DNA of 15,635 nt from Nitrososphaeraceae archaeon. GTDB lineage: Archaea > Thermoproteota > Nitrososphaeria > Nitrososphaerales > Nitrososphaeraceae. Each line of letters opens with the position of its first letter. Positions within the stretch are counted from its first letter, which is position 1. The notes below the pieces were generated by a model. It was given only the letters and a program-made list of their open reading frames with translations, was not told the DNA's origin and did no database searches. The stretch is from positions 1 through 15,635 of the forward strand of contig DATFEP010000055.1 of assembly GCA_035250975.1 (NCBI GenBank). The letters run 5' to 3'. Shown in pieces: positions 2,027-15,635 of this stretch. A program made the position numbers and the translations under genes.

Positions 2027-2449
2027 CTATTCAACTAGATTTCCGCCGTGGATTTTTAATAATCTTTGTAAAATCTCAGCAGCAATATACCCTTTAACAG
2101 TTTGTTTGAGATCAAGACCAGATATTTCTTGAACAATTGTAGCAAATTTTGGATGTTTTGCCTTGATTTCTGATGCTTTTGCCTTGATTTCTTCTTCTGT
2201 CATATATTCCTCTAACGGTGAACTAGTCTGACCAGTTATTTTTTCCTCAACTAGATTTCTGGCATGTGATTTTAGTATTCTCTGTAAAACTCCCGCTACA
2301 AAATAAGCTCTGAAAGTTTCTTTCAGGTCAAGATTAGGAATTTCTTGAACAATTGTAGCATACTTTGGATGGTTTGTTTTAAATTCGGCTGCTTTTGACT
2401 TAAATTCTTCTCTTGTCATTCTAATATCTTCTAAAATGGTTGTCATCAT
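2027..2449 (-). CDS. Hypothetical protein made of two tandem ~60-aa helical repeats
   Basis: MTREEFKSKAAEFKTNHPKYATIVQEIPNLDLKETFRAY... aligns with MTEEEIKAKASEIKAKHPKFATIVQEISGLDLKQTVKGY...; the duplication is also visible in the DNA (ATTTCTTGAACAATTGTAGCA twice). Confidence 0.85.
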   Translation of the reverse strand: MMTTILEDIRMTREEFKSKAAEFKTNHPKYATIVQEIPNLDLKETFRAYFVAGVLQRILKSHARNLVEEKITGQTSSPLEEYMTEEEIKAKASEIKAKHPKFATIVQEISGLDLKQTVKGYIAAEILQRLLKIHGGNLVE

Positions 2450-4087: not shown

Positions 4088-4184
4088 CTATTTCAAAAAT
4101 GATTTAAATAGACAATGAAGGATTCTGCCAATACATTTGTTAATTATTTTTTATGGTAGTGTCTTATTTTTTCTTATATAATAT

Positions 4185-4286
4185 CAATGAAATAGAACTT
4201 CAATAAATTTTTAGGAATAAAATTAGAAATGATAGCTATTGAAAATCTGATCGTTTATAATGGTCAAATCTTGTATCCAAGTTAAT
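4185..4286 (+). repeat. ~100-bp direct repeat, copy 1
   Basis: About 90% identical to 15531-15635 (about five substitutions, one 4-nt and one 1-nt indel). Confidence 0.95.
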
Positions 4287-4326: not shown

Positions 4327-4384
4327 GTAGTGGGCCCGAGAAAAGTACGGGCCCCGTCGGGTTGAGGGGTATTTTTGCCTCTAT
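4327..4384 (+). repeat. Modular repeat, module A (GGGCCCG-N9-CGGGCCC hairpin) fused to module B
   Basis: Perfect 7-bp stem 4332-4338/4348-4354; 4327-4361 matches 12533-12567 and 4355-4384 matches 1802-1831. Confidence 0.85.
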
Positions 4385-4446
4385 ATTGTAGCCTGTCATA
4401 AGAAGAGAGCATACGACCAATTTTTAAAATTAGATTTCAACAAACA

Positions 4447-4560
4447 TCAATACTTAACTTTTGTTATCTTGTTGAAAGAATCTTGCCCAATAAACCTCTC
4501 ACCAGTATCAAAATCTTTTCTGATTAAAACCCAAAGCCAGATGCCAATATGTATAAAATA
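4447..4560 (-). pseudogene. Possible highly degraded DDE (IS6-like) transposase fragment
   Basis: Minus-strand translation YFIHIGIWLWVLIRKDFDTGERFIGQ...; IWLWV and ERFI recall archaeal IS6-type transposases but with shortened spacing. Weak. Confidence 0.2.
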
Positions 4561-4575
4561 AAAATAAATAGATTA

Positions 4576-4986
4576 TTAATCATCTACTGGCCAAGCATTA
4601 GACGTTATGAATTCAACCATATTGCCAACTGGATCGCGAAAATATATTGATTTGCTCTTCCCAAATTTTATCTCTTTTTCAATACTGATATTATTTTCCT
4701 TTAAAAGAGACTTCCATTTTTCATAATCTTCTTTTTTTATTTCAAAAGCAAAATGTATTATAGAAGGAGGACTAAATGCCCCATGAGACGGAAAATTATC
4801 ATTGATATTATTTAATGTATTGTTGGGATTGAAAATTAAAAGCATGTTTTTTCCTGCTTTTAAAAATACATGTCTGTCTTTTTCTTCTGAAACAAGATCC
4901 AATCCCAAAATATCGATATAAAAATCCTTCATTTCTTTTAGATTGGAAGAATATATACTGGTTTCAATAATTTTTATAAATTTCAT
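4576..4986 (-). CDS. VOC family (glyoxalase/bleomycin resistance/dioxygenase) protein
   Basis: 136 aa with FYIDILGL, HFAFEI and SIYFRDPVGNMVEF; putative metal ligands E8, H (HFAF) and E (VEF). Confidence 0.93.
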   Translation of the reverse strand: MKFIKIIETSIYSSNLKEMKDFYIDILGLDLVSEEKDRHVFLKAGKNMLLIFNPNNTLNNINDNFPSHGAFSPPSIIHFAFEIKKEDYEKWKSLLKENNISIEKEIKFGKSKSIYFRDPVGNMVEFITSNAWPVDD

Positions 4987-5245
4987 GATACGTTATTATC
5001 GTATATCAAATTTAATTATTAATACATCAACATTACAAAATCGTATAAAAGTGAAATGAAATATATTTATAACATGCCCGTCGGTAGTTGAATAGTCATT
5101 TTTTCCGTGTTCAGTAACAGATCAGTTAATAGCAGTAATCCGCTAGTGAATATTTAGTTCAATATGCATCTAAATATTCTCTATTACAAATAAAAATAAA
5201 CCAGTTTATCATAATTACAAATACCGACTTCGTAATGGCAACGTG

Positions 5246-5300
5246 CTTCACATTTCCGGAATGAAGAAAGTGAATCCGTCAACCACTTTCTACTCCGGAA
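5246..5300. other. Long intergenic stem-loop
   Basis: TTCCGGA 5254-5260 pairs with TCCGGAA 5294-5300, enclosing AGAAAGTG 5265-5272 paired with CACTTTCT 5284-5291. Confidence 0.6.
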
Positions 5301-5791
5301 TCATTAAAAATTTGATTATAAATTCCAGCATATCACTAGAGTAATAAGTTAATGCATGAATTAATTTAAACAAGTCAGAAAAAGTAAGAAAATTAGAAAT
5401 TAAATTTAGACTAGGGACATTAAACAAAAAAATTCACTCTTTTTTGAGGATAATATTTATAAAAAATTTGATTAAAAAAATATGTTGAAAATATCATGTA
5501 CATTAACTACCATAAATTCATAATATTGTCTAAATAATATAGCACATTTAATTAGGTTCGTAATAGACAGCATATTTTACTATGTAAAATAAGACCATTC
5601 TAAACCTCTATAATGACCAACTATGATTCTGGCTGAGATCAATACAAAATGAACTCAAATATATAATGATTTCATTTTTGGGGGATTTGTTTCTGTCAAA
5701 ATTTTTTAACATAGTACAGATTTTCATAAATGCAACAAGTTATAGCAAATAATATTTAGAAATTGTTATATAAAATAAATAATAGATTATT

Positions 5792-7504
5792 TTGGTATTA
5801 TTAGTGTTTGAGACTATTACATCAAAAATACGAAATAAATCGTTTGAATTTTCAAACTCAATTCTTTACTATCCTATACTATTTTTGGTAGGTTCTTTCT
5901 CTTTGTTTGTCATGACTTCTACAATTGATCCATATATTCCAAGAGATTATGAATTTTCCCTATTCGATCCATTAGTTTTTACTGGAAGTCCTGATGCAGC
6001 AAGAAGCATTCTATCTACAATAGCTACGGGATGGACTACCATTTTGGGTGTGGCTTTTTCTGTTACACTTATTACATTACAACTTTCATCTTCAAAATAT
6101 ATTTCACGTCTCGTTAGCGAATTTCAAAATGATAAAATTAATCAGCTCACACTAGGATGGTTTATTTTTGTATCTTCTTATTCTTTGCTAATTCTAAAAA
6201 CTGTCAGGACAGATGAAGCTGATGGTGTTTATATCCCAATATTAGGTACAAATATTGCGTTAGCTGTTGCTATTATAGGTTTGTTGATTTTTGTAGTTTA
6301 TATACATAACATAAGCAATTATCTCAGACCAAATATATTAATCTCACGCCTTATAGATGGTATTATTTCGTCATTAAAAAAATATGAAAAGAGAAAAACT
6401 GACAAAAAACTTATTTTTGATGAAAAACCATTTGATGAAAAAATCTGTGATATAAGATCAACTAGTACTGGAATTATAACTTCAATTAAGTGGAAGAAGA
6501 TTCAAAATCTGCTCATTCAATTTCAAACAGATAAAGACCTTTGGATGGAATGGTATAAAAGTATTGGAGATTGGTCTGGTAAAGAAGAACTTTTGGCAGC
6601 AGTTTATAAATATAAAAATGAAGAACAAAAAGAAGAAAATTATCACCAAAAGAATAAGAGTAAATTTCTTGGTCTACCTATGATAAATAAAAATAATTAT
6701 GATCATTATAATGAAAACCATTCGATAAATAAAGAAGAAGGAGAAGATGATATTTCATTTAATCAAAACATTCTTAATTGTATACAAATTACTAACGATA
6801 GTAACTCATCAGAGGATCCAATTCTAGGAATACGTTTGTTGGGAGAAATGGCTGTTAAATCTAATAATTTGAGAGATTATGACGTGGTGAATTCGGTGAT
6901 AATAGGTCTTTTCCAGATTTTAATCTATACCTATTCAAATGAAGAGAAATTGGGTTTACCATTTACTATCTCATCAGAGGGTATGCACATTAAAAAAATA
7001 AGAAAAATAAATTTGCACAAAAAAACAAAAAATAATGATGCTACTGAAGAAAATAATGAATCAAAAAAAGAAGAACAAGAAGAAGATAATGAAAAACACA
7101 AGAAGCAAAAGCAACGGATTATAATTATAAACCCTAGGGAAGTACGGATTCATGATGTTATTATTCATACTTTAACAACTATAAGCAGTATGATAGCTAA
7201 TCAAAAAAATACTTCTTCAAATGAATGTATTTGTAAACAGTACATAGCCACAACTAAATACTTGTTAGAGATAAATAAAGTCAATGAATATCAAATACTT
7301 ACAGAATGGTATTCGAATCGTCTTTTACTAATAAAACAAGAATTCTGTGATTCTCTGGTATTGTTACCCATTTTAAATTTGTTATTACAATTTAAAAAAG
7401 ATTTAAATTTCTCCTACCCATATGCGGTTAAAACTTTTTCTGTTTTCATGGATGAAATTCTAAAATATAGAGAGGATATTGTTAATAGAAAGGATATAAA
7501 ATAA
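5792..7504 (+). CDS. DUF2254-family membrane protein
   Basis: 570 aa, TTG start (exact start uncertain); family signature GSPDAARSILSTIATG..TILGVAFSVTLITLQLSSSKYISRLV..F..D...Q.TLG.F; four N-terminal TM helices and a soluble C-terminal region containing EDP..GIR.L.EMA. Confidence 0.88.
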   Translation: MVLLVFETITSKIRNKSFEFSNSILYYPILFLVGSFSLFVMTSTIDPYIPRDYEFSLFDPLVFTGSPDAARSILSTIATGWTTILGVAFSVTLITLQLSSSKYISRLVSEFQNDKINQLTLGWFIFVSSYSLLILKTVRTDEADGVYIPILGTNIALAVAIIGLLIFVVYIHNISNYLRPNILISRLIDGIISSLKKYEKRKTDKKLIFDEKPFDEKICDIRSTSTGIITSIKWKKIQNLLIQFQTDKDLWMEWYKSIGDWSGKEELLAAVYKYKNEEQKEENYHQKNKSKFLGLPMINKNNYDHYNENHSINKEEGEDDISFNQNILNCIQITNDSNSSEDPILGIRLLGEMAVKSNNLRDYDVVNSVIIGLFQILIYTYSNEEKLGLPFTISSEGMHIKKIRKINLHKKTKNNDATEENNESKKEEQEEDNEKHKKQKQRIIIINPREVRIHDVIIHTLTTISSMIANQKNTSSNECICKQYIATTKYLLEINKVNEYQILTEWYSNRLLLIKQEFCDSLVLLPILNLLLQFKKDLNFSYPYAVKTFSVFMDEILKYREDIVNRKDIK

Positions 7505-7684: not shown

Positions 7685-7724
7685 GAGTAATACCGATAGC
7701 GGCTTAAAAATAAGAGTCTACTGT
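7685..7724 (+). repeat. Modular repeat, module C copy 1
   Basis: GAGTAATACCGATAGCGGCTTAAAAATAAGAGTCTA matches 12567-12602 and 12766-12801; preceded by TCGGG at 7677-7681. Confidence 0.85.
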
Positions 7725-7809
7725 AAATATAGTCTACCTTGTATTTAGCTTTTATTGTTAGAAACTTAAATTAAATGTAATATTCAAGATATATATAAAT
7801 ATTGAAGGG

Positions 7810-8936: not shown

Positions 8937-9043
8937 AGAATCAATCAAACAAAAAATTTTATTACAATTTAGTAACTGAAAACAATTATCTAACATCCTC
9001 TGTGATTCAAGGTATTTGTAGTGCTAGTAATATGACTGGGTAA

Positions 9044-9464
9044 TGTATTATCCCACCACATGTGTTACTCTCCTATTATATACTTGTACTGGTGGTGTCA
9101 TGTAGTTCAATGACATATGTACTCTTTTGTTATTATAGTATTTAATGAATTGTTCATGTCTTTTGAATCTGGGGCTCTCTACATCGCATGTCCTATGCCA
9201 TCTCTCTATTTTACCAAGTGTAGTAGGTTTTCCTATACCACCAATAACATGTTGTACGTCATGTTCCTTGCAGAAAGAATCAAAATCTGATTGCAATTTA
9301 GAATGTGAATTATAGAATTGGGAACCATGGTCTGTCAGTATCTGCATTGGTTTTCCATACTTTCTGATTGTACGTTTTAATAGATAGATGATATTATCTG
9401 ATTTCATTACATGTTTCTTATCTGAGGACAAATCATAATATTCAATAAATAATAAAACCATCAC
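9044..9464 (-). mobile_element. IS481-family element, right end with truncated DDE transposase C-terminus (ORF 9048-9464)
   Basis: YGKPMQILTDHGSQF, GKIERWHRT, YYNNKRVHMSL; ORF ends VTHVVG* inside terminal repeat TGTATTATCCCACCACATGTGTTAC (9044-9068; TGT...ACA ends are typical of IS481). HTH and first catalytic Asp are missing. Confidence 0.88.
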
Positions 9465-11420: not shown

Positions 11421-12251
11421 ATGGCAACTAAATATATTATTTTGTTATTGCCAATAGTGCTGGCTCTATCAATACAAATATCAACTACGGAAATCTTTGC
11501 TCAACGTGGCAGTATGGCTACATTACAAAATATTGATGCTACTTATGCAGTGAGCATAGTTCCTGGTGCTGCTCAAAAAGAGAACATATATCATTACTAT
11601 CCTCCACAAATTGCCGTACCTACAGGTACTACCATAGGGTGGTTTAACAATGACTTTGGACAACCTCATACAGTAACCAGTGGACAACCAGGAGCTGCTG
11701 ATAAAGGTTCGGTCTTTAATTCAGGCATAATGCCAGCTACAGCTAATTCATTCTTTCAATTCACATTTACACAGCCTGGTGAATTCCTATATCATTGTAT
11801 TATTCATCCCTGGAGAGTGGCTTCAGTATCTGCAAACGATGCCTCATTTACTGATGCAAGTTTTGATATAGCTTTAGGTTCAGGTGCTATATGGGATATT
11901 TCGAGTAATCCACGCGTATTAATGGATATTAGTCCAAAGACAGTTCCATTAGACAGAAATACTCCAATTACTTACAATGTAACTATTAATGAACTTCAAA
12001 ATGATAATAAAACATTATTCTCTAAGCTGTTCACTACCTCGGGTGAGTCACTTCCACTAGAATTAGTTTCCGGTATCGGTAATGAAACCATTTCTTATGG
12101 ACCAGATTTTAGCAGTACTGGAGCTTATCATGTTCAATCAGATTTTAAAAAGGGTTCTTCTTATCCAATAAGTGTAGAAATAGTATCTGTCAACTATAAG
12201 CCAGTAGAAAATCCCGTAAAGGCTTCATTCACCTTGAATACTAGTTCTTAA
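11421..12251 (+). CDS. Secreted plastocyanin/azurin-like cupredoxin-domain protein with C-terminal beta domain
   Basis: Signal peptide; YYPPQIAVPTGTTIGWFNND..PHTVTSG..FNSG..FTFTQPGEFLYHCIIHPW; type-1 Cu ligands His, Cys, His present, axial position Arg. Confidence 0.92.
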   Translation: MATKYIILLLPIVLALSIQISTTEIFAQRGSMATLQNIDATYAVSIVPGAAQKENIYHYYPPQIAVPTGTTIGWFNNDFGQPHTVTSGQPGAADKGSVFNSGIMPATANSFFQFTFTQPGEFLYHCIIHPWRVASVSANDASFTDASFDIALGSGAIWDISSNPRVLMDISPKTVPLDRNTPITYNVTINELQNDNKTLFSKLFTTSGESLPLELVSGIGNETISYGPDFSSTGAYHVQSDFKKGSSYPISVEIVSVNYKPVENPVKASFTLNTSS

Positions 12252-12276: not shown

Positions 12277-12413
12277 TGTATTGTCTCATGACATCTGTTA
12301 CACTCTTTTACTTGATAAAAAATAGAGTGTTACACTAGATGCAGTATAAACGAGACCTAGAAAAGATTAGAAGATGGTGTATAAGACGCGAACTAGAAAA
12401 CAAGATTTTGTAA
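12277..12413 (+). mobile_element. IS481-family left end with 24-aa transposase N-terminal stub
   Basis: TGTATTGTCTCATGACATCTGTTAC (12277-12301) is 20/25 identical to the end at 9044; internal TGTTACACT repeated; ORF 12339-12413 MQYKRDLEKIRRWCIRRELENKIL* resembles the basic start of archaeal IS481 transposases. Confidence 0.75.
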
Positions 12414-12531
12414 TTTCTGGGCCAAAATCTTGCTCCATTTGCGCCTCTAATACTATCTAACTCGAATCAAAATACATTAGTTATAGACAAATAGTTTTTG
12501 CTTCCAAATGGTCATATAACAGTTTAACGAC

Positions 12532-12613
12532 AGTAGGTGGGTCCGAGAAAACTACGGGCCCGTCGGGAGTAATACCGATAGCGGTGCAAAAATAAGAGTC
12601 TAATGTTGTAGTA
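12532..12613 (+). repeat. Modular repeat, module A fused to module C
   Basis: GGGTCCG-N9-CGGGCCC hairpin (12539-12561), CGTCGGG junction, then AGTAATACCGATAGCGGTGCAAAAATAAGAGTCTAATGTTGTAGTA. Confidence 0.88.
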
Positions 12614-12765
12614 TCATGGATATTATTTAAACTTAATAAAAATAATAACTTCTTTGAAAATAAAATGATGAGAAGTTAATTATTTACATGTATTTAGATT
12701 TTATTGATGAAAACTTTATTTTAGAAGTATGGAGGTATGTGAGTGGGTTAGAGATTTGAATGAGA

Positions 12766-12812
12766 GAATAATACCGATAATGGTGTAAAAATCAGAGTCT
12801 AATGTTTTAGTA
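12766..12812 (+). repeat. Modular repeat, module C copy 3
   Basis: GAATAATACCGATAATGGTGTAAAAATCAGAGTCTAATGTTTTAGTA, 199 bp downstream of the copy at 12567. Confidence 0.85.
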
Positions 12813-12890
12813 AAAGGAGATAATATTCAGATTTATGTTTCAGAATAGATTTAAAAAAATAAAATTGTTGGAATAAAAATTACATCATTG

Positions 12891-14645
12891 TTAAATTGTT
12901 ATAGGAGCATCTGTAAAGAATCTTCTAAAGTTAAATACTGTTTGTTCTGGTAAATAACTTTTTAATTCTTTGAGAATACTGATGGCAACTTCTTCTCCAA
13001 GTATTAATGAGACAGTATAATCACTTCTATAATGTACTCCAGCTCCATTTCTTCCAATCGCTACATTTGCTGCTAATTTGTTTAGTTCACCATGAATTTT
13101 TATTTGATCTTTATCATTTCCCTCATAATTTTTTAGTTCTTTGCCATTGTGATTTGCTTCCACTATAGGTCCAGGCATGTCTCCGTCTGCAAACCATGCT
13201 TTAAGAATAGTAACACATGCCCCTGCGACTGTTCCATGTCCAGCTCCATATGATGGATGTAAAGGCGAACCTTCTGGAAAAGCCTGTCCTAAGAAATATG
13301 TTTCCTTATTTTTATCTGGATTATCAGATTCTAAGTCTTTATTTAATTCCTTGTTTCGTTTTGCAACTTTTTCCAATACGGGAGAATTAAGAATAGATTG
13401 ATGAATAAATGGATACTTCGTTTTGTTACTTTTTATGTGATGATGAATTAAGCCTGCAAACGCTTCTGGTCTGAGACGTCTATGAACAAACCATTTTTGG
13501 AACCAAACTGCTTTTAATGCTCTTGTGGCAACTTCTGTCAACAAGGAAAGAATATGTGGACCCCCATAATTTCCAAATCCCTCTTGTTTTTGGAGAGTTT
13601 TATATGGAATACCCTCACTTATGCTAAACCTATTTGAATTATTCTCACCGCCACTATCATTCAACATATACAAACATGCTGTTAGATATGCTTGATATAA
13701 TGCATCGTAATGTACAAAGGTAGCTAAATCTCTTAAATTTCTTATAAAACACGGTTCATCATCAAAATATTTATTGTTATTGTCTGCTACTCTATCTGCA
13801 TAAGTATATAATCCATTTTGTACATTCAACCAACTTTGATTATCTGTCATAAAATCTAATCCTTTTTTAGCAACTACGTGTTTTTGATCTATACTTGTTG
13901 TACCATATTTTACGTGTCCGTGTTTTTCTTTTCTTTTTATAGGCTTATCTATATTTCCTCTCAACATAAATTGAGAAATGTAAGGACCAACATTATCTCC
14001 GACATTTATTCCCCTGAATAATGTTTTTGGTGAGAGTGCAATCCCTGTTTTCGTCCAACTTGTATTTAGTGTTTCTATTGTGAAATTGTATGCTCCAAAA
14101 TTATTTTTTAAGTCAGTTACAGCATCTTCTGCTGTATCTTCTTCATCATAATCTGTGAAATTAATGTCTCTCATTAGATACATCCAGTATAACTCAGCAA
14201 TTTCAGCAGCCCCATTTAATGAATCCATTCTCGGAGCAGGAAGCATAATACGATTAAAAGCATCCAATCCTTCAGAATCATAAGATAAACCACACACAGG
14301 ATTTACCAATTTTGCTTTCGGTTTGCCAGCAGCTACTCCACTTCCAATAGGAAGATTTTCAAAGAATGATAAACTATTCGAATAATTTGGAACATCGGCC
14401 AAGCTATCCTGTATGGCATTTAGAAATTGATCAAAATCGACTGGATTTAGCACTTCACCCATATTATTATGATTCAAACCTTTTGTAAAACTTGCAATTC
14501 CTTTTGGATGACCGGCAGCCTGATAGTCCATTTCTTCCTTATTATTATCATGTATTACTGCAGTATTTGGTAAAGATATATCGGCTACAGCATTTCTTCT
14601 ATTTTTTGGTTCTGGAATTCTATCATTTGGTAAAGGATTTACCAT
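12891..14645 (-). CDS. Vanadium-dependent haloperoxidase (red-algal/cyanobacterial bromoperoxidase-like, PAP2 superfamily)
   Basis: 584 aa with all three vanadate-binding motifs: QKWFVHRRLRPE, HPSYGAGHG, GRNGAGVHYRSD; plus VBPO-type segments FTKGL.HN..GEV, ELYW..L.RD..F, GPYISQF, IRNLRDLATFVH.DALYQAY. Confidence 0.95.
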   Translation of the reverse strand: MVNPLPNDRIPEPKNRRNAVADISLPNTAVIHDNNKEEMDYQAAGHPKGIASFTKGLNHNNMGEVLNPVDFDQFLNAIQDSLADVPNYSNSLSFFENLPIGSGVAAGKPKAKLVNPVCGLSYDSEGLDAFNRIMLPAPRMDSLNGAAEIAELYWMYLMRDINFTDYDEEDTAEDAVTDLKNNFGAYNFTIETLNTSWTKTGIALSPKTLFRGINVGDNVGPYISQFMLRGNIDKPIKRKEKHGHVKYGTTSIDQKHVVAKKGLDFMTDNQSWLNVQNGLYTYADRVADNNNKYFDDEPCFIRNLRDLATFVHYDALYQAYLTACLYMLNDSGGENNSNRFSISEGIPYKTLQKQEGFGNYGGPHILSLLTEVATRALKAVWFQKWFVHRRLRPEAFAGLIHHHIKSNKTKYPFIHQSILNSPVLEKVAKRNKELNKDLESDNPDKNKETYFLGQAFPEGSPLHPSYGAGHGTVAGACVTILKAWFADGDMPGPIVEANHNGKELKNYEGNDKDQIKIHGELNKLAANVAIGRNGAGVHYRSDYTVSLILGEEVAISILKELKSYLPEQTVFNFRRFFTDAPITI

Positions 14646-15286
14646 TATTTTTGCCTCCTATAATATTCTGAATATGTATATTATTCATAGGATAGCCATA
14701 TTAGAATAGAATTTAAATATATTGGTCAACATAGAAAAGGTTTTATATGTCATAATTAAGTATAACAAAAATAATTCGAAATTGAAATTAATAATTAAAC
14801 GTTATTGCTAATACTGATATATGTTTAAATACATAACCATGTTTTATAATTTATCATATATTGTCCTCTGGAATAATATGTTATTGAAATATCATCAATT
14901 TTCTATCTCTGTGATTTTGTATTCTAATAGTATTACCTAATAGCTTTAAAACTAATTCATAGCATAATTTGAATGATGGATAATTTTTTCGGCGCCGAAA
15001 AAATAAGAAATGGAATTTTTCATGGCATTATCAAATAAGATGGAAAGCAGATTCTACCAATCTTATTATCATTACTTCATTTTTCTTTACGTAATTATAT
15101 AGGTATATGGTATTTGTGTTATTTATGATATTTGGTAGTCAAAAATGAAAATATTTTTTCATCTCATTTCATATTGAATATCGATAATGATTTAACTCAT
15201 ATACAATGTATCGCGTATTGGTAGATATATTGAGCTTGTATTTATTGGAGTATTGACGGTATGGACTTTCTTTTCTTAGTACAAAT

Positions 15287-15391
15287 CTAACACCATCTAC
15301 ATGTCAGTCCAATGAAAGGCAATGTTGCAATTAGTGATGCTCCTACAATCATTCCTATGACGCACATGTTGAATTTTGTTAACTTGAACAT
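15287..15391 (-). pseudogene. 34-aa signal-peptide-like ORF, possibly a truncated secreted-protein gene
   Basis: Manual translation MFKLTKFNMCVIGMIVGASLIATLPFIGLTCRWC*: basic N-terminus plus hydrophobic core, then a stop. Confidence 0.3.
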
Positions 15392-15530
15392 ACTTCTATA
15401 TCCTCTTTAGAACAGAAAAAGATTTTCCACATCTGAAAATAGAATTGGCTGTAACGCAGATACATAATTCGGAACCTAGAAAAGAAGACCAATAGAGTTA
15501 TAAGGTACTATTTTTTGTAACTTATAATGA

Positions 15531-15635
15531 CAATGACATAGAACTTAAATCAATAAATTTTTAGGAATAAAATTAGAAATCATAGCTATTGAAAATCTGA
15601 TCGTCATAATAGTCAAATCTGGTATCCAAGTTAAT
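15531..15635 (+). repeat. ~100-bp direct repeat, copy 2 (runs off the window edge)
   Basis: About 90% identical to 4185-4286. Confidence 0.95.

Follow-up and report, generated by a model that had tools for sequence, protein, structure and literature searches.

Does a soil ammonia-oxidising archaeon carry a working vanadium-dependent haloperoxidase (VHPO), and if so, how did the gene come to be there and what might the enzyme do? The question is raised by a 15,635-nucleotide contig of a Nitrososphaeraceae archaeon (GenBank assembly GCA_035250975.1, contig DATFEP010000055.1), the whole of which we call the window, and in particular by an open reading frame (ORF) of 584 amino acids with an ATG start at positions 12891..14645 of its minus strand. 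An earlier note, made by inspection of the letters, had described this ORF as a full-length VHPO with all vanadate-binding motifs, possibly acquired horizontally. We conclude, with a probability of roughly 0.7, that the ORF is a real and functional gene on the chromosome of an ammonia-oxidising archaeon from soil, that its product is a cytoplasmic VHPO of the bromoperoxidase type, that it is part of an accessory cassette and that it probably serves to consume hydrogen peroxide (H2O2). The assignment draws on the ORF listing, a search of PDB, a fold match, the conserved active site and the ratio of nonsynonymous to synonymous substitution (dN/dS).

Protein family, active site and selection

We compared the protein with all PDB chains using phmmer. 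Ten distinct sequences were matched, and every one is a vanadium bromoperoxidase (VBPO), in agreement with the full-length enzyme proposed before. The top match was 5lpc_A from Acaryochloris marina (E 3.6e-99), with the mutants of 5LPC at about 4e-99, followed by Corallina entries (2e-93 to 1e-89), Ascophyllum 1QI9 (2.4e-63) and 5AA6 (8.7e-51). An AlphaFold2 model built from a 15-row alignment (mean predicted local distance difference test score (pLDDT) 76; predicted template-modelling score (pTM) 0.84) has the full-length, mostly helical fold of about 550-600 residues that marks bromoperoxidases. When the model was compared with PDB by Foldseek, 11 bromoperoxidase chains came out on top, with template-modelling scores (TM) of 0.74-0.81 and E values from 1e-33 to 3e-23, and the Corallina enzymes were the best of them (TM 0.79-0.81). 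The next matches were the Zobellia iodoperoxidase 4cit (E 0.17) and Streptomyces NapH1 (3w36, E 0.49). On the strength of these sequence and fold matches, the protein is predicted to be of the algal/cyanobacterial bromoperoxidase type, as the earlier note had held, and not of the Curvularia, Streptomyces or Zobellia type. Enzymes of the bromoperoxidase type are dimer-based oligomers in which a neighbouring subunit lines the active-site channel, and the vanadium haloperoxidase class expresses well in E. coli.

In a local Pfam scan, the only match of the protein was PAP2 (PF01569), at 17.6 bits (E 0.0033) against a gathering cut-off of 27.2 bits. This sub-threshold match is a superfamily resemblance only. 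PF22778 is precomputed on homologues, and an NCBIfam scan of the protein matched zero models. The open frame around the ORF comprises only 588 codons, and a longer N-terminus is therefore impossible. A GGAGG (14654..14658, minus strand), which would act as a Shine-Dalgarno sequence, is separated from the ATG by 8 nt and is identical in the metagenome contig L117.

The motifs of the window protein are complete: K384-x7-R392-P393, H463-P-S-Y-G-A-G-H470 and R532-x5-H538-x3-D542. We list W381, K384, R392, H463, G469, H470 (which we take to be the acid-base histidine), R532, H538 and D542 as its site residues. In an alignment of 110 family members, K384, R392, P393, H463, G469, H470, R532, H538 and D542 are invariant in the archaeal-genome (17/17), named bacterial-genome (58/58) and metagenome (35/35) rows. 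Trp381 is present in all 17 archaeal rows and in 44 of the 58 bacterial rows; in the other 14, Arg takes its place. The A. marina enzyme is numbered here after PMC11871015, a source used in excerpt, in which numbers are 27 lower than those of the 5LPC PDB chain. In this numbering, K384 aligns with the active-site lysine Lys428, H463 with the active-site histidine His513, and W381 with Arg425, at position i-3, which tunes chloride use. R392 fits the pattern of Curvularia Arg360, and R532-x5-H538 that of Curvularia Arg490/His496; these residues and Lys353 are named in a reference title within the same excerpts. The spacing of R532 and H538 equals that of Arg490 and His496, and K384 and R392 stand one residue further apart than Lys353 and Arg360, as also in the 5LPC alignment.

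According to the same excerpts (PMC11871015), the Curvularia and Ascophyllum enzymes, which chlorinate, have Trp at the W381 position, and a change from Arg to Trp or Phe increases chlorination by the Corallina pilulifera enzyme, whereas Arg425Trp has little effect in the A. marina enzyme. Because the effect of this residue differs among characterised enzymes, chloride use by the window enzyme is possible but not predictable from Trp381.

Among known enzymes, the closest in sequence is that of A. marina (AmVHPO; 5LPC, mutants 8Q20-8Q22), whose match covers residues 7-564 in two stretches. The two proteins have in common the N-terminal segment without a signal peptide, the GAGH variant of the central motif with Ala (residue 468) instead of Ser, and Lys428, His513 and the remaining site. 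The window protein differs in being about 80 residues shorter, in lacking several loop insertions and in having Trp381 where AmVHPO has Arg425, and the fold match (TM 0.75) is below that of the Corallina enzymes. The A. marina enzyme is a dodecamer according to the excerpts of PMC11871015. The VBPOs of Corallina officinalis and C. pilulifera (1QHB, 1UP8, 7QWI, 8VH0) match over nearly the full length at 34-35% identity, but they are eukaryotic (red-algal) and have Arg at the W381 position (PMC11871015, in excerpt). VBPO I of Ascophyllum nodosum (1QI9) has the same fold (TM 0.74-0.76) and, in the same excerpts, Trp at the W381 position and the ability to chlorinate, but its sequence is more distant (29% identity). 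The chloroperoxidase of Curvularia inaequalis, Streptomyces NapH1 and the Zobellia iodoperoxidase belong to the same superfamily with the same catalytic Lys/Arg/His/Arg/His set, but the matches of these branches to the whole model were insignificant.

We searched the N-terminus for export signals. Neither a signal peptide (the highest 15-residue hydropathy within the first 75 residues was 0.65) nor a twin-arginine motif with a hydrophobic stretch was found, and the start of the protein aligns with that of 5LPC. Consistent with the absence of an obvious signal peptide noticed earlier, the window enzyme is predicted to be cytoplasmic.

The gene is under purifying selection. By the Nei-Gojobori method, dN/dS was 0.095, 0.116, 0.116 and 0.056 against the metagenome relatives L117, L118, L119 and L120, respectively, and 0.15 and 0.21 against the relatives in the genomes G030 and G158. 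In a public-run index, 20 runs from 10 studies contain part of the gene, and 6 of these are RNA libraries. Assemblies of soil and rhizosphere metatranscriptomes yielded contigs on 13038-14670 at 90-99% identity in 4/4 runs from 3 studies, consistent with in situ transcription. In these 4 runs, no contig was found on 12488-12975, on 14684-15635 or on the last ~50 codons (12891-13037), from which we draw no conclusion. Runs X2-X14, which contain 0.41-0.48 of the sampled words, were not used as habitat evidence.

Host, distribution and origin

The window comprises the entire contig C26 of genome G000 (2.49 Mb in 91 contigs; completeness 94.6%, contamination 2.6%). This genome encodes archaeal amoA (contig C61, 394 bits) and TatC, and NCBI labels a protein 97% identical to that of the window (P0002) as 'Nitrososphaeraceae archaeon'. 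We considered whether the contig might be bacterial or chimeric and misbinned into an archaeal genome, since it is short (15.6 kb) and without marker genes, and the haloperoxidase family is mostly bacterial. However, its composition is typical of the genome: the GC content is 0.300 compared with 0.306, and the tetranucleotide distance from the genome mean is 0.0104 (rank 36 of 91), where the 25 contigs of 8-30 kb have a median of 0.0109. Its dispersed repeats are common to at least 8 other contigs, large ones included. A whole-window DNA search against the 24 other genomes of the genus gave matches in all of them, and every other gene of the window has matches of 70-96% DNA identity in same-genus genomes, on scattered contigs without synteny. 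Related haloperoxidase genes within the family are found in a one-contig genome of 2.99 Mb (G032) and on a 710-kb contig (G164:C1), and the genome-derived rows in the clade of the window protein all come from Nitrososphaeraceae, the other rows being metagenome proteins. Misbinning is therefore scarcely credible. The host is a soil ammonia-oxidising archaeon, as the earlier note had thought from its appearance, and the contig is archaeal, neither bacterial nor chimeric.

The same genome encodes a second haloperoxidase of 590 aa (G000:C58:31258-32697, locus L002; 7950-9722 in L103), which is 43% identical to the window protein by one search and 36% by BLAST. It lies among genes for an RsmB/F methyltransferase, a NIP7-type PUA protein and RNase HII. 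The N-terminus of this paralogue is of the twin-arginine type, and its orthologues in G012, G026 and G366, as well as a G017 protein, have a clear RR motif followed by a hydrophobic stretch. Because of this N-terminus, G000 probably encodes one cytoplasmic haloperoxidase and one exported by the twin-arginine translocation (Tat) pathway.

To survey the lineage, as had been suggested, we counted matches at E ≤1e-20; the genomes are samples, and absence means not found in those searched. Apart from G000, 26 of 200 species genomes of its own family (f1) carry a haloperoxidase, with carriers in 10 of 18 genera and in 6 of the 24 other genomes of its own genus. Among high-quality genomes of the family, G000 included, the count is 18/114. 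In a sample of the class, the gene was found in f1 (8/78) and f5 (1/4), and not in the 223 genomes of f2, the largest sister family, or in 95 genomes of 17 further families. In a sample of the phylum, none of 400 genomes other than G000 had it. In a protein search, 7955 of 8000 candidates had E ≤0.001. A scan of species genomes found 594 relatives, and the best 80 of them are from cyanobacteria (up to 46% identity), Actinomycetota, Acidobacteriota and others, with only one archaeal record, which is identical to the G076 locus. The haloperoxidase family is thus overwhelmingly bacterial and, within the phylum, confined to two families among the genomes searched. As far as sequences can tell, this distribution fits inter-domain transfer.

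We then placed the window protein in trees. A first, quick LG+G4 tree of 110 rows held 17 full-length archaeal loci, 58 bacterial and 35 metagenome rows. The archaeal fragments L099-L102 were omitted from it, as were bacterial loci shorter than 480 aa or beyond two per genus (58 of the best 80 kept), and the metagenome rows are 35 of at least 120 metagenome proteins. In this tree, the window protein belongs to a set, with support of 98 in the SH-like approximate likelihood ratio test (SH-aLRT), that contains G030, G158, G134, G073, G164 and metagenome proteins only. Without 8 long branches and near-duplicates, 69 rows remained, from which trees were built under the C20 mixture and LG+G4. Four archaeal subclades were seen in the 69-row LG+G4 tree: A, that of the window; B, with G032, G152, G067, G091 and G076; C, with G027 and G017; and D, which unites the second copy of G000 (C58) with G012, G026 and G366 of family f5. 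In both 69-row trees, the strongly supported branches require just one change between archaeal and bacterial labels. When the 17 archaeal rows were constrained to stand together against the 32 bacterial rows, the result lay 2.23 log-likelihood units above the free search, with p 0.508 in the approximately unbiased (AU) test; both this test and its tree were run under LG+G4 and are subject to the weaknesses of that model.

Grouping all archaeal rows is not rejected by the test, so the data can accommodate one ancient arrival with later duplication and many losses, and they can accommodate several arrivals too. The archaeal subclades and the bacterial groups branch in a different order in the 110-row tree and in the 69-row LG+G4 tree, and the backbone branches are below the 95% support threshold. 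We name no donor lineage of the archaeal haloperoxidase, the deep branching order being unstable and the tree unrooted. The phylogeny proposed in the earlier note was to include algal, cyanobacterial and bacterial enzymes; ours has cyanobacterial, bacterial and archaeal rows, and red- and brown-algal sequences are not among them. The window gene sits in a diversified clade of Nitrososphaeraceae and metagenome rows, and the AU test leaves a single archaeal clade standing; for these reasons it appears to be no recent bacterial import, and probably represents an old archaeal branch of the family.

Relatedness within the genus was traced with an rpoB tree of 20 of the 25 genus genomes (four had no match, and one partial sequence was omitted). 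The closest relatives of G000 in this tree, G078 and G048 (97% identity), are without a subclade-A haloperoxidase gene, while the nearest homologue in a species genome, at 72%, is found in another genus (G030). Accordingly, within the family the haloperoxidase behaves as a mobile accessory gene. The idea of horizontal acquisition therefore holds in part: the family is dominated by bacteria, reaches two archaeal families and is mobile within that of the window, but as a property of this particular gene it was stated too strongly, and a recent arrival from bacteria does not hold.

Surroundings of the gene

As described earlier, the haloperoxidase gene stands alone, with repeats and insertion sequence (IS) debris downstream. 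No ORF of at least 60 aa was found in the 990 bp upstream of it, and the sole near neighbour is a convergent gene for a secreted cupredoxin-domain protein of 276 aa (11421..12251, plus strand), with matches to Copper-bind and halocyanin/plastocyanin domains that are all below cut-off. The cupredoxin-domain gene belongs to a multi-copy family in the genus, with DNA matches of 69-89% in more than 10 same-genus genomes, and a functional link to the haloperoxidase is not indicated.

Directly 3' of the stop codon lies a copy (12766..12835) of a dispersed 47-70-nt repeat, family D1. A repeat search of the genome found a second copy at 12567..12635 and a third at 7685-7731, and the repeat has more than 20 copies spread over at least 8 further contigs (C69, C20, C71, C68, C2, C23, C89 and C50). 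It has the look of a miniature mobile element, or of a recombination site at the borders of gene cassettes. Upstream of the gene is a dispersed element of ~550 bp (14980..15524), which occurs twice more on G000:C23 (82% and 76%) and is also found in at least 7 genomes of the genus. The element starts with a perfect 20-nt palindrome with a GC-rich core, which is kept in 4/4 aligned copies. Inside it is a conserved ORF of 34 codons (15287..15391, minus strand) for a one-helix peptide ending Cys-Arg-Trp-Cys, which may represent an unannotated small-protein gene family.

The metagenome contig L117, whose haloperoxidase is 96% identical in amino acids, is collinear with the window over 12763-15524 only, at 91% DNA identity; the repeat at 12766..12835 and the ~550-bp element form the two ends of this shared block, and the flanks differ on both sides. 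Because just this block is shared, the unit of element, haloperoxidase gene and repeat behaves as a cassette in a flexible region. An insertion site could not be defined in the nearest relatives, as synteny with G078 and others ends at single-gene boundaries. Rfam and tRNA scans of the window found nothing.

The IS debris consists of two pieces. One is a fragment of 122 bp (12277..12398), and the other is a truncated rve integrase-core ORF of 138 aa (9048..9464, minus strand; rve_3 6.6e-08, rve 2.9e-07), which belongs to an IS that is multi-copy in the genus, with many copies of 82-91% in G078, G138 and G012. In same-genus genomes, the 122-bp fragment and copies of the transposase piece 9041-9402 lie ~450-500 bp apart, and such pairs were found at G078:C10, G078:C7, G138:C50 and G158:C112. 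Pieces 9041-9402 and 12277-12398 thus make up one multi-copy IS elsewhere in the genus, and here two genes stand between them.

In three related genomes, G073, G032 and G134, which represent two haloperoxidase subclades, the haloperoxidase gene has a divergent neighbour for a membrane protein of ~290 aa with tetratricopeptide repeats (TPR). These genes (L104, 10019-10939, plus strand; L106, 10036-10911, plus strand; L108, 3637-4509, minus strand) are 57-72% identical to one another, and their products have a hydrophobic N-terminal half, apparently with several membrane helices as judged by eye, and TPR repeats at the C-terminus. We rejected a conserved operon partner, as the membrane-TPR gene is present in just 3 of 6 related archaeal loci and nothing else recurs.

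Duplicated sequences are found elsewhere in the window. An ORF of 140 aa (2027..2449, minus strand) has an internal tandem duplication at 2020-2419 (period 216 bp, 1.9 copies, 76% match) and belongs to a multi-copy family, with DNA matches of 90-96% in G078 (two places), G026 and G048. The region of a glyoxalase-family gene (4344-5346) is duplicated at G000:C71:503-1499 with 93% identity, and the last 127 bp of the contig (15509-15635) repeat the stretch 4165-4286 at 87.5%. These last two duplications probably explain the break in the assembly here.

Role of the enzyme and rival explanations

In the VHPO family, a halide is oxidised by peroxo-vanadate, and the resulting hypohalous acid halogenates nucleophiles in its vicinity. 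If the solved homologues are a guide, vanadate in the window enzyme would be held by His538 and would receive hydrogen bonds from Lys384, Arg392, Arg532 and the Gly469-His470 turn. H2O2 would bind to give peroxo-vanadate, and attack by a halide would yield hypohalous acid or an enzyme-held X+ equivalent. The hypohalous species would then halogenate an available nucleophile, or oxidise a second H2O2 and so regenerate the halide. The most likely role, in our view, is halide-mediated consumption of H2O2, in which reactive halogen, and hence haloamines or organohalogens, may arise as a by-product or serve as a weapon. A peroxide sink and organohalogen formation, both raised in the earlier note, are candidate roles of the enzyme. 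The Curvularia enzyme is reported to chlorinate amines to chloramines (PMC13054786). Heme catalase and Mn catalase were not found in the 94.6%-complete genome G000, which has three AhpC/TSA genes.

Several observations weigh against a functional, peroxide-consuming bromoperoxidase. The activity, metal content and localisation of the archaeal members are predictions from sequence, and the shared active site supports phosphatase chemistry, which such evidence cannot exclude. In the model, residues 458-466, H463 included, have pLDDT below 50, and we make no geometric claim for this loop. Free intracellular hypohalous acid is toxic, so a cytoplasmic sink would need a quencher, and none was identified; nor does G000 have a conserved partner gene, since tblastn for an orthologue of the membrane-TPR protein gave generic TPR matches only. 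The L117 copy of the gene (4902-6652, 96% aa identity) has a frame-breaking deletion of 1 nt at about codon 42, which points to a fault of assembly or to a very recent inactivation, because the dN/dS of the whole gene is still 0.095. The contigs from RNA libraries may derive from DNA and show neither strand nor level, so that transcription is not proven.

The pattern of Mn catalase is likewise unfavourable. By hand count, it is present across the family in 13/27 haloperoxidase carriers and 74/174 non-carriers. In the genus of G000, the corresponding counts, also made by hand, were 1/7 and 16/18. Placed on the rpoB tree, the genus pattern amounts to 4 independent contrasts, 3 opposite and 1 unchanged (sign test, p 0.25). 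One of the contrasts depends on G048, whose Mn-catalase gene is broken into three parts and contains stop codons, and another on G158, a genome of 73% completeness. Complementarity with Mn catalase was therefore rejected as support: it is not significant once relatedness is taken into account, and it is absent family-wide.

Other explanations of the gene were weighed against the peroxide-consuming one. The enzyme could be a dedicated biosynthetic or allelopathic halogenase that acts on one metabolite, like the selective Streptomyces enzymes, and no general consumer of peroxide. Selective VHPOs do exist (NapH1-type and esVHPO), an aryl-binding tunnel can form in the related A. marina enzyme (PMC11871015, in excerpt), and a patchy accessory distribution is typical of secondary-metabolism genes. 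We regard this explanation as unlikely, however: no biosynthetic genes adjoin it, either here or at the 6 related archaeal loci compared, the sole recurrent neighbour is the membrane-TPR protein, which is seen at 3 loci and is absent from G000, and NapH1-type chains were insignificant as structural matches. A phosphoesterase of the PAP2 superfamily whose ligand in vivo is phosphate and not vanadate, and which has no halogenating role, is less likely still. It would agree with the single site that haloperoxidases and acid phosphatases have in common, with the weak PAP2 match, with the acid phosphatases that appear far down the fold list, and with the phosphate seen in the active site of crystals of the closest relative (PMC11871015, in excerpt). 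By contrast, the PAP2 score misses its cut-off, the significant sequence and fold matches are all to proven bromoperoxidases with the full architecture of 550-600 residues, and both H463, the counterpart of A. marina His513, and W381, the halide-specificity position, are invariant in the archaeal rows.

The location of the gene among IS fragments and dispersed repeats, its absence from the rpoB-closest genomes G078 and G048, and the frameshift in L117 could also be taken to mean that it no longer has a function and is decaying as the passenger of a mobile cassette bounded by repeats. This is very improbable, as the frame is intact, dN/dS is 0.06-0.12 even with L117 included, the active site is invariant, and the sequence is present in assemblies of RNA libraries. 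A bolder extension of the peroxide-consuming reading combines the window enzyme with the Tat-type paralogue in a two-compartment system, cytoplasmic and exported. In such a system, H2O2 and catalytic halide would give hypohalous acid, which ammonia and nitrite would quench to haloamines or to nitrate; a halide-cycled peroxide defence would replace catalase in some lineages, and nitrifying archaea would be an unrecognised source of reactive halogen and organohalogens in soil. We put this forward as a speculation that is doubtful as a whole.

The NCBI pipeline already gives the name 'vanadium-dependent haloperoxidase' to proteins in metagenome-assembled genomes of Nitrososphaeraceae, and also to P0134 (WP_144732475.1) of Candidatus Nitrosocosmicus arcticus, an enrichment culture; these names come from annotation only. 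P0134 is in a 90%-identity cluster with P0041, a subclade-A protein 49% identical to that of the window. The word 'haloperoxidase' has 0 occurrences in the portion of the Ca. N. arcticus genome paper available to us (PMC6657660), and full-text literature searches, which do not extend to supplementary gene tables, found no paper describing a haloperoxidase of an ammonia-oxidising archaeon. The earlier note had allowed that the gene might already be widespread and described in this lineage: it is moderately widespread and automatically annotated, in a named enrichment culture among others, but a description in a paper was not found. The gene is a new member of a known enzyme family, from a lineage in which that family is patchy, auto-annotated and without a published study that we could find.

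Ammonia-oxidising archaea rank with the most abundant microbes of soil, and sensitivity to H2O2 is known for many of them. Fungi and bacteria usually receive the credit for the natural chlorination and bromination of organic matter in soil. Among the species genomes of the main soil lineage of these archaea, about one in eight has a haloperoxidase gene. If the enzyme is an ordinary bromoperoxidase without a special role, the finding extends the host range of a well-known family. If it is active, it would provide soil ammonia-oxidising archaea with a haem-free, peroxide-consuming enzyme, and nitrifiers would join the possible producers of hypohalous acids, haloamines and volatile halocarbons.

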